From: Deltaproteobacteria bacterium RIFCSPLOWO2_12_FULL_60_19
GTDB lineage: Bacteria; Desulfobacterota; Binatia; UBA9968
Assembly: GCA_001798595.1 (NCBI GenBank)
Contig: MGSS01000114.1
Span: forward strand, 2,034 to 66,033
Reading direction: 5' to 3'
Length of the DNA: 64,000 nt
The translations under genes were made by a program, and so were the position numbers. Shown in pieces: positions 5,783 to 6,935 of this stretch (position 1 is its first letter; each line of letters opens with the position of its first letter). Below the pieces are notes generated by a model. The model saw only the letters and a list, made by a program, of their open reading frames with translations, was not told the origin of the DNA and did not search any database.

Positions 5783-5858
5783 GGGCCGCTAGCTCAGTTG
5801 GTAGAGCAGCTGACTCTTAATCAGCGGGTCCGGAGTTCGAGTCTCCGGCGGCCCACCA
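5783..5858 (+). tRNA. tRNA-Lys(CTT)
   Basis: Acceptor GGGCCGC/GCGGCCC, anticodon loop CTCTTAA, T-arm GGAGTTCGAGTCTCC, CCA encoded. Its 3' half is duplicated at 6824..6869. Confidence 0.88.
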
Positions 5859-6086
5859 AATTTTCCCAAGTCTTTCAAGGAGTTGTTCATTGATCTAAGA
5901 GCCACTTGTTCTACCACTGTCCGCAAATTGTCCGTGTTTTGTCCGTGTTCTCTCATCCAACCGCCTTTTTCAGCGGGTAGATGACGCCGGCCTTGGCCTG
6001 CCTCTGAAGATGCTTCGTTTCGCCTCAAGTTGCGCAACCGCCCCCGTTGGTATAGCCTTTACTCGTCTACGGAAGGAGAGGGCCGC

Positions 6087-6296
6087 ATGAAACAATTCGT
6101 TGTAACTCTGACACCTGGCGAAGACGGCTACATCGTTGCCGAATGCCCCTCCTTGCCCGGTTGCGTCTCTCAAGGCAAGACCAAAGACGAAGCCTTGCAA
6201 AACATCAAGGAAGCCATCGAAGGCATCCTTGAGGTCCGCCGCGGGATGAACAATCCCATTGCTCCGCCGGAAGTCCGTTTCATCGAAATCGCCTGA
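6087..6296 (+). CDS. hicB: HicB-family antitoxin (UPF0150)
   Basis: 69 aa. ATG 6087 lies downstream of a strong SD (GGAAGGAGAG). Motifs: TLTPGEDGYIVAECPSLPGCVSQGKTKDEALQNIKEAIEG. The reading frame overlaps hicA by 1 nt. Confidence 0.7.
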   Translation: MKQFVVTLTPGEDGYIVAECPSLPGCVSQGKTKDEALQNIKEAIEGILEVRRGMNNPIAPPEVRFIEIA

Positions 6297-6514
6297 TGCC
6301 AGCCCCGCCCGTGATCTCGGGCCGGGAAGCGGCCAAAGCCTTCCAAAAGATCGGCTTTCTTTTTCATCACCAAACCGGCAGCCATATGATCTACTACCGG
6401 TCCGATGGCCGCCATCTTTCCATCCCCGATCATAAAGAGCTTGATCGAGGAACCTTGCGCGGCCTCATCAAAGGCGCCGGGATCACGGTCGAAGAATTCG
6501 TCAATCTGCTGTAG
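6296..6514 (+). CDS. hicA: HicA-family mRNA-interferase toxin (YcfA-like)
   Basis: 72 aa with the HicA pattern: G.E..KA..K.GF...HQTGSH.IY....GR.L.IP.H.KELDRGTLRG.IK.AGI. Confidence 0.7.
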   Translation: MPAPPVISGREAAKAFQKIGFLFHHQTGSHMIYYRSDGRHLSIPDHKELDRGTLRGLIKGAGITVEEFVNLL

Positions 6515-6823
6515 GTTGTCACAGGCGGCAGCCATCTCCAGTGGTTGGCGCTCCGTCAGTGCGCCGTCATCGATGATTTTATTGCCTCCAGACCTGGCCA
6601 AAGACACGGACAATTCACGGACAGGCTGGAGAAAAGGCTTGCACCGTAGGAAGTTAGGATGGCCCGTCTGATTGTCGATCACACCGGCCGCAGCGTGCTT
6701 GTCCGCCTTTTGTCCGTGTGCTGGCGCACCCATCCGCCTACGATGACCGAACAACCGAAAGGGAGCATCTTGAAATGCTTGGGGGTTTTGGTAACATGTC
6801 GCCTGTGGTTCGCCTGGGGAAGC

Positions 6824-6869
6824 ACTCTTAATCAGCGGGTCCAGAGTTCGAGTCTCCGGCGGCCCACCA
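6824..6869 (+). repeat. Partial duplicate of the tRNA-Lys(CTT) 3' half (att-type direct repeat)
   Basis: ACTCTTAATCAGCGGGTCCaGAGTTCGAGTCTCCGGCGGCCCACCA matches 5813..5858 with one mismatch. It lacks the 5' half, so it is not a functional tRNA. Confidence 0.8.
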
Positions 6870-6935
6870 AATTTTTCCCGCGAACAGCGGGGAAAATTTA
6901 GAGCATTCGAGCAATGCCTCCACGATTCCTTTCCC

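Follow-up and report, generated by a model that had tools for sequence, protein, structure and literature searches.

We examined a 64,000-nt stretch of the genome of Deltaproteobacteria bacterium RIFCSPLOWO2_12_FULL_60_19 (contig MGSS01000114.1), hereafter the window, with positions counted from its first letter. A cluster of tRNA genes in the order Pro-Arg-His-Lys occupies positions 5246-5858 and is followed by a 1-kb islet that lies between two copies of the 3′ part of tRNA-Lys(CTT) and carries a hicB-hicA toxin-antitoxin (TA) pair. An earlier, sequence-only reading of this DNA had taken the islet for a decayed integrative element. The features of the islet are listed below in their order along the window; attL and attR denote the left and right attachment (att) sites, and relatives found on other contigs bear L numbers.

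5783-5858, plus strand: tRNA-Lys(CTT), intact, last of the Pro-Arg-His-Lys cluster and the integration target (ARAGORN; Rfam tRNA model, 69 bits).
5813-5867, plus strand: attL identity block, made up of tRNA positions 31-76 and 9 nt of flank (direct-repeat search).
5917-5947, plus strand: three direct putative arm-type integrase sites (CTGTCCGCA, TTGTCCGTG, TTGTCCGTG) at 11-nt spacing (motif search).
5953-6012, minus strand: integrase pseudogene stub, the last 19 codons (HLQRQAKAGVIYPLKKAVG) and the stop codon (tblastn with residues 335-353 of the integrase of the full-length element L112; 89% identity, E = 5.8e-6).
6012-6019, no strand: junction of an internal deletion of about 8 kb, with L112 position 442 on its left and L112 position 8470 on its right (alignment and BLAST coordinates).
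6019-6086, plus strand: conserved region upstream of hicBA with a candidate extended -10 element (TGGTATAGC, 6048-6056) and a Shine-Dalgarno sequence (6072-6083), near-invariant in the window, L087, L111, L021 and L112.
6087-6296, plus strand: hicB antitoxin gene, 69 aa, single-domain, no DNA-binding domain (PF15919, 30 bits at a cut-off of 27; PF21748, 27.3 bits at a cut-off of 27.3).
6296-6514, plus strand: hicA toxin gene, 72 aa (PF07927, E = 8e-16, 58 bits at a cut-off of 27; PDB 1WHZ, E = 2e-9).
6605-6624, minus strand: two inverted putative arm-type sites (motif search), kept in L112 (9057, 9068), L204, L073 and L211.
6699-6718, plus strand: two direct putative arm-type sites (TTGTCCGCC, TTGTCCGTG; motif search), kept in L112 (9150, 9161), L204, L109 and L211.
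6824-6878, plus strand: attR, the displaced and non-functional 3′ portion of the tRNA, in which an A at tRNA position 50 disrupts one T-stem pair (repeat search; no tRNA called).
6869-6899, plus strand: 13-bp GC-rich hairpin directly after attR (folding, -18.9 kcal/mol, z = -3.0).

The 55-nt direct repeat that bounds the islet (5813-5867 and 6824-6878, 1011 nt apart in our repeat search) is identical at 53 of 55 positions. It begins at tRNA position 31, in the anticodon loop, and comprises 46 nt of tRNA together with about 9-11 nt of flank past the encoded CCA, which bears out the proposal, made from the sequence, that the last 46 nt of tRNA-Lys(CTT) and about 10 nt of flank recur 1 kb downstream. 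The two copies differ by one base change (G5832 versus A6843, tRNA position 50), which breaks a T-stem pair in the downstream copy, and by the length of a T-run just after the CCA. ARAGORN calls no tRNA at the second copy, and no third copy of the att sequence is present between 5000 and 19000, so that none brackets the glycosylation cluster that lies further downstream. The hairpin that follows attR is probably the original terminator of the tRNA operon. An attL-type block also adjoins the integrase in L112, L079, L082 and other loci.

The DNA between the repeats was described earlier as lower in GC, and a check of local GC and codon usage agrees: the islet interior (5868-6823) has a GC content of 55.4% against a window mean of 60.2% (standard deviation 2.3% among windows of equal size) and so falls at the 2.5th percentile, and third-position GC is 0.63 in hicB and 0.67 in hicA against 0.75-0.83 in the neighbouring genes. 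The only credible genes between the repeats are hicB and hicA. The sequence-only reading had already identified this pair as the sole cargo, with a strong Shine-Dalgarno sequence and overlapping stop and start codons, and both assignments are supported by Pfam matches; the Shine-Dalgarno sequence, GGAAGGAGAGGG, lies at 6072-6083 upstream of hicB, and the hicB stop and hicA start overlap by 1 nt in TGATG at 6294-6298. No further Pfam match was found in the islet besides hicBA, and we regard three other open reading frames (6405-6671, 6659-6901 and, on the minus strand, 6170-6754) as spurious, given that they have no significant family matches and that 6659-6901 crosses attR.

HicA is predicted to act as an RNase toxin that HicB neutralizes. 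In the HicA encoded here the His of the GSH motif is conserved and aligns with the His of the Thermus HicA-family protein 1WHZ, and homologues of this HicA are widespread among related uncultured lineages. In the HicA allele P0006, found in L206-L210, the otherwise conserved GSH motif reads CSY, a change that may represent erosion or inactivation of the toxin within a remnant. The Pfam match of HicB is marginal, and weak PDB matches to HicB N-terminal domains and to TTHA1756 are consistent with the assignment; only the N-terminal half of the 123 profile positions is matched, and the C-terminal DNA-binding domain that serves autoregulation is not present. The pair looks functional as a toxin-antitoxin system, possibly expressed from a promoter with the extended -10 element TGGTATAGC.

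Full-length relatives at the same tRNA reveal where the islet comes from. L112 (9458 nt, with 9.1 kb between the att sites) has tRNA-His and tRNA-Lys(CTT) at its left end, and adjoining tRNA-Lys, on the minus strand, is a gene for a 353-aa tyrosine integrase (PF00589, E = 2e-21; PHROG integrase family, E = 2e-51). Next come one or more XRE-type helix-turn-helix (HTH) proteins and a 959-aa putative replication protein, which has weak matches to DUF927 (E = 5e-4, below the cut-off) and to a DnaB-like PHROG (E = 2.5e-4) and no match in a PDB sequence search. The element also encodes several open reading frames of unknown function and a 140-aa HTH protein matching PHROG small-terminase families (E = 2.6e-11), and at its far end it carries hicB, hicA and then the attR copy of the tRNA fragment. 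Annotation of L112 recognized no conjugation or mobilization genes, no structural genes and no AlpA/Xis in this type of parent. L021 is a second full-length copy at the same tRNA-Lys(CTT), with hicBA at its far end; it is 90% identical over the shared parts, and its integrase is frameshifted. At the homologous position, L112, L079, L099, L105 and L095 have integrase reading frames that are complete.

Alignment to L112 resolves the window copy into two blocks, with 5783-6012 corresponding to L112 213-442 (86-90% identity) and 6019-6878 to L112 8470-9328 (81.5% identity); the approximately 8 kb of L112 between these blocks is missing from the window. The window tracks the left-hand element sequence as far as ...CTGAAGATG (6012) and then continues with sequence that in full-length elements lies about 68 nt upstream of hicB. 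As the window matches both ends of full-length elements and lacks the 8-kb middle, the islet is an integrative element stripped of its interior. The left block ends within the integrase gene, and the stub that remains there is identical at 19 of 19 amino acids to the C-terminus of the integrase fragment on contig L060, whose reading frame reads through to it. This stub is the only convincing tblastn match of the L112 integrase in the whole 64-kb window, from which the family integrase gene is absent. The sequence-only reading had stated that no integrase gene remains, which is correct for a complete gene and incorrect for the 19-codon 3′ stub at 5953-6012; it had also directed the search for integrase remnants to 6515-6820, where we found nothing, the stub being located to the left and on the minus strand. 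Because of the stub, a history in which a hicBA-only form is ancestral and 8 kb was inserted later is strongly disfavoured. Annotated relatives of the integrase were sought in two reference collections: the nearest phage integrases retrieved with the protein query from the phage collection are 28% identical, and the DNA query returned tRNA matches only from the plasmid collection, so that neither held an annotated relative.

A second line of evidence is provided by short repeated sites on both arms of the islet. The 9-mer TTGTCCGTG has six exact copies in the 64 kb, of which five fall within the 1-kb islet; the seven putative arm-type sites listed above include one-mismatch copies. These sites are arranged as three direct, two inverted and two direct copies, and the same layout is conserved in L112 (348, 359 and 370; 9057 and 9068; 9150 and 9161). 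The arrangement is as expected for arm-type sites of a lambda-like tyrosine integrase flanking the core, which the integrase would be predicted to bind. With all seven putative sites retained, both att regions are structurally complete. The sixth exact copy, at 6966-6974, lies 90 nt past attR inside the 5′ end of a family 2 glycosyltransferase (GT2) gene, in coding sequence shared by the L211 homologue, and it is probably a coincidence, about 0.5 exact copies being expected by chance in 64 kb as estimated from the window length.

The arm-site sequence extends well beyond the elements described so far. Scanning JGI metagenome contigs with the 21-nt pattern CTGTCCGYRAATTGTCCGTGT returned 104 contigs (L017-L120) from soil and sediment, and the arm-site pattern scan of a viral contig collection gave 0 matches. 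In many of the contigs the motif lies a few tens of nt past the integrase stop codon, and since these integrases are only 39-60% identical to that of L112, the motif accompanies the family. We take this as a sign that the integrase family is broad and its candidate arm-site sequence unusually conserved; to our knowledge TTGTCCGTG with its 3+2+2 layout has not been described earlier.

We consider it highly likely that the islet is what remained in place of a site-specific integrative element of about 9 kb after internal deletion, and the collinear full-length relatives L112 and L021, with an integrase at the same tRNA-Lys(CTT), uphold the earlier view of a decayed integrative element. Islands and prophages with tRNA-targeting tyrosine integrases typically recombine by crossover in the anticodon loop and possess core and arm-type sites of the lambda/P4/P22 type; the work of Williams in 2002 is said to exemplify the literature on such integrases. 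The present family resembles them in that the stretch of identity extends from the anticodon loop as far as the tRNA 3′ end, the integrase abuts the tRNA in full-length copies and short repeated sites are present on both arms, whereas it differs in the distance to the nearest phage integrases (28% identity) and, for the window copy, in the lack of an integrase. In the sequence of events that we propose, the tyrosine integrase of the parent would have recombined the attachment site of the element (attP) with the part of tRNA-Lys(CTT) that extends from the anticodon loop to its 3′ end. We place the crossover itself within the anticodon loop, as suggested by the start of the identity block and by established knowledge of tRNA-targeting integrases. 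Integration would have rebuilt the tRNA at attL from an element-borne copy and displaced the host 3′ half and the terminator hairpin to attR, where decay would then have begun. One or more later deletions would have removed about 8 kb, from about codon 334 of the integrase to the intergenic region just upstream of the hicB promoter, leaving attL, three arm-type sites, the 19-codon integrase stub, an intact hicB-hicA operon, four arm-type sites and attR. The remnant, which is not self-mobile because the integrase is lost, would now be inherited with the chromosome and moved among strains by homologous recombination. The hicBA pair is the last survivor, probably as a result of counter-selection, through post-segregational toxicity, against loss of the antitoxin gene or of the whole pair, with a benefit to the host also possible.

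Parallel remnants of the family show that this is not the only such deletion. In L208, attL and one arm site are joined to about codon 30 of the small-terminase-like gene, and hicBA is kept. L204 and L205 consist of attL, about 600 nt of unrelated DNA, the intergenic region, hicBA, arm sites and attR, again with hicBA kept, and their host has 75% DNA identity to the window in the Ham1 gene region. L206 and L207 have two direct arm sites and a tRNA-Lys 3′ half-site, then about 53 codons of the small-terminase-like gene and then hicBA; because the half-site is preceded by arm sites (L206 1590-2500), another family member lies there in tandem, which looks like the accretion of successive elements at the site. 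A second deletion, from just past the inverted arm sites into the attR core, is found in L021 and L008. The same Pro-Arg-His-Lys tRNA cluster is also present in L121 (7382-7906), a distant metagenome-assembled genome (MAG) labelled Verrucomicrobiia, and there a truncated integrase pseudogene of the family (65% identity over residues 224-345) adjoins tRNA-Lys as another decayed copy.

Two further members, L073 (1440-1990) and L211 (1-432), have no hicBA, and in both the inverted arm sites follow immediately on the start of the small-terminase-like gene; comparison with them reveals a short CGG microhomology at the edges of the hicBA segment. As these two members lack the pair, hicBA is an accessory cassette of about 590 nt (about 6013-6598 in the window) and not a core gene.

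To place the remnant in its population context we used exact-protein look-ups with HicA, HicB, the GT2 glycosyltransferase and Ham1, which led to about 13 contigs in several samples from ENA and JGI. The same deleted islet is in the same place in every one of these close relatives, with flank identities from 99.9% down to about 93-97%. No empty tRNA-Lys site, which the sequence-only reading had expected to be informative in related genomes, occurs among these contigs or in L211 (NCBI MAG GCA_041492295.1), a more distant relative with a GT2 protein 83% identical and the same downstream gene, where this site is occupied by the right end of a family member that lacks hicBA. A repeat-free site was seen only in the distant MAG L124 (Ham1 59% identical), where tRNA-Lys is followed by 1.4 kb and then tRNA-Leu. 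One candidate for an empty site, the end of contig L015 (6983-7123), was rejected: the 5′ part of tRNA-Lys is joined there to tRNA-Arg-like sequence, an assembly chimera at a shared tRNA k-mer. In a Ham1-anchored scan of genome contigs the best Ham1 among the matches listed was 62% identical, and the named homologues of HicA, GT2 and Ham1 point tentatively to Candidatus Binatia or to MAGs labelled deltaproteobacterial. Given that every sampled close relative carries the remnant and none has an empty site, the remnant is old and fixed. The idea of a recent insertion, for which the presence of the same repeat and hicBA at this site in close relatives had been named beforehand as contrary evidence, thus has to be abandoned.

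Several observations weigh against the explanation that we favour. When the left edge of the hicBA cassette is set by comparison with L073 and L211, the deletion is seen to end, on its right side, within about 8 nt of that edge, so that one random deletion is unlikely and either stepwise trimming under selection or a recombination hot spot is needed. Taken with the three other independent junctions that fall within 250 nt of hicB, this position suggests that trimming was repeated and went only as far as expression of hicBA allowed, the alternative being a local recombination hot spot. Addiction is also not absolute, since some family members have no hicBA and the pair can thus be missing or lost; a consensus promoter scan called no hicBA promoter. 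No full-length copy was found in a host shown to be the same species. L087 had been a candidate for an undeleted element in the same host, with its small-terminase-like gene joined to a right flank identical to that of the window; it is 95% identical over hicBA and then 100% identical over 872 nt, with a 258-nt tail unmatched, and we downgraded it as a possible chimeric assembly. Lastly, both the toxicity of HicA and the binding of an integrase to the TTGTCCGTG sites are inferred from sequence.

The hicBA pair is under strong purifying selection, in the deleted forms as well. The ratio of non-synonymous to synonymous substitution rates (dN/dS) is 0.03-0.2 in all pairs with dS > 0.1 (0.05-0.2 for hicB and 0.03-0.1 for hicA), and among deleted forms the synonymous and non-synonymous differences number 6 and 0 in hicB (window versus L002) and 3 and 0 in hicA (window versus L008). 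Selection of this kind, seen in all lineages, would fit a role for addiction in the retention of the pair, but it would also be expected if the pair had been domesticated and kept for a benefit to the host, such as abortive-infection defence against phages or stress-induced growth arrest. The fixation of the islet in each sampled close relative and the wide occurrence of HicA homologues in related uncultured lineages would agree with such a benefit. We nevertheless regard it as the less probable reason, though a tenable one, because family members and a related host have no hicBA at the same position (L073, L211), the CSY allele of L206-L210 suggests erosion of the toxin, and chromosomal TA pairs were often addictive and short-lived in a recent survey (PMC13617665). 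Host benefit and addiction are compatible with each other.

It is also conceivable, although we consider it improbable, that the remnant is a working non-autonomous mini-element, of the type known as a cis-mobilizable element (CIME), which a related integrase acting in trans excises and re-integrates with hicBA as its sole cargo. Both core sites and the seven arm-type sites are intact and invariant among strains, family members have accreted in tandem in L206, and full-length relatives with uninterrupted integrase genes occur in the same kinds of samples. Moreover, L203 has an islet of 100% identity that includes the same junction and follows an entirely different spacer between tRNA-His and tRNA-Lys, and L008 has the same junction with other arms and another right flank; these arrangements could reflect mobilization in trans, recombination or chimeric short contigs, and both L203 and L008 are sub-kb metagenome contigs that may be chimeras. 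Against mobilization, arm sites or part of attR are missing from other remnants (L208, L204, L021/L008), so the sites are not consistently kept by selection, and the 64-kb window has no family integrase and no transfer function left.

The pattern of divergence among strains points in the same direction. Between L002/L003 and the window, divergence does not exceed 0.1% over a tract from 5158 to 7853 that takes in the tRNA cluster, the islet and GT2, the exception being six clustered synonymous differences in the hicB of L002, whereas the flanking genes outside the tract are more diverged, at 3-7% (0.8-7% for RNase PH/Ham1 and GT4). The six differences match the alleles of L087 and L111 and look like a gene-conversion tract. 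The tract of identity exceeds the att sites, and ordinary homologous recombination suffices to explain it; we accordingly rejected element-specific horizontal spread as the source of near-identical islets in strains 2-7% diverged, given that the identity covers host flanks too, and the mosaic divergence in L002/L003 points to homologous recombination or strain-mixed assembly. Were the islet nevertheless mobilized in trans, a minimal selfish element with site-specific integration would be spreading a toxin-antitoxin pair between genomes. An origin of the repeat by local duplication of part of the tRNA, or by misassembly, next to an ordinary chromosomal hicBA pair would accord with the absence of an integrase gene from the window and with the fixation of the islet in close relatives. 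It is extremely improbable, as the integrase stub, the layout of the arm-type sites and the collinear full-length elements at this tRNA contradict it and more than 10 independent contigs, found in ENA and JGI samples, reproduce the structure.

Some features of the surroundings deserve mention in their own right. The spacer between tRNA-His and tRNA-Lys (5709-5762) contains a palindromic or repeated motif, CAGATTTCAGATTTC...GAGATCTGAGATT; this hairpin is kept in L112 and L204, and a different hairpin takes its place in L203. Direct and inverted repeats of the AGTGAGCAGTGAGTAGT type are located 3′ of tRNA-Pro and tRNA-Arg (5329-5397 and 5507-5523). On the other side of the islet, an 11-kb glycosylation cluster (6936-17811) lies exactly between attR and the conserved promoter of tRNA-Leu(TAG) (17870-17971) and encodes GT2 and GT4 glycosyltransferases, a 939-aa STT3/PglB-like oligosaccharyltransferase (9344-12163), a MurG-like GT28, GT1-type enzymes and an ABC exporter. 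The cluster is present in L211, and no repeat flanking it was found. In the more distant relatives L109, L111, L057 and L020, tRNA-Leu lies within about 10-100 nt of attR, and in L109 and L057 it is followed by sequence matching the trigger-factor gene region of the window. In the element-free L124, no more than 1.4 kb separates tRNA-Lys from tRNA-Leu. From these arrangements, the presence of the cluster at this hot spot is lineage-specific.

What we describe is a clear but ordinary case of mobile-element decay, in which a known kind of element, CIME-like and with HicAB as its surviving cargo, is found in an uncultured lineage. CIMEs are decayed remnants of integrative and conjugative or integrative and mobilizable elements known in streptococci, for which a structural definition is available (PMC5704250). 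By its sequence the islet fits this definition, with mobilization in cis putative: attL and attR are retained at the 3′ end of tRNA-Lys, integration and transfer genes are lost, only hicBA is coding, and the relative L206 shows tandem accretion. It differs in that the parent shows no conjugation or mobilization genes and looks more like a small satellite-type or replicative island, that the host is an uncultured soil or sediment bacterium and that a TA pair is the sole cargo. The parent itself may be compared, as a lead, with satellites of the phage-inducible chromosomal island (PICI) type in its size of about 9 kb, the integrase at one end, the XRE regulators, the large putative replication protein, the small-terminase-like protein and the lack of structural genes; it differs in the weak matches of the replication protein, in the lack of a recognizable AlpA/Xis and in having no known helper phage or induction. 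The hicBA pair shares with type II HicAB systems a HicA domain, a HicB N-terminal domain, an organization of two small overlapping genes and carriage on a mobile element, and differs in having the antitoxin gene first and a 69-aa HicB without a C-terminal ribbon-helix-helix or HTH domain, like the single-domain TTHA1756 (PDB 2YZT).

The islet also bears on how chromosomal TA pairs arise. Belot et al. 2026 (PMC13617665) proposed that such pairs are acquired on mobile elements and that linked genes are then streamlined away, and in their survey the pairs were often addictive, short-lived and rarely clustered with other putative defence systems. The case presented here agrees with this model in that a TA pair arrives on an integrase-bearing element, its neighbours are deleted and the pair is left alone in a high-turnover spot, and it differs in that the parent, the exact junction and several independent parallel deletions are directly visible, and in an uncultured lineage. 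These results are useful for annotation and leave current understanding unchanged. They provide a natural example of how chromosomal toxin-antitoxin pairs end up standing alone, with the parent, the junction, the 19-codon stub and parallel hicBA-sparing deletions all visible within a single element family from an uncultured lineage, and they point to a widespread family of soil and sediment integrative elements, at least some of which target tRNA-Lys(CTT), with a conserved candidate arm-site motif.

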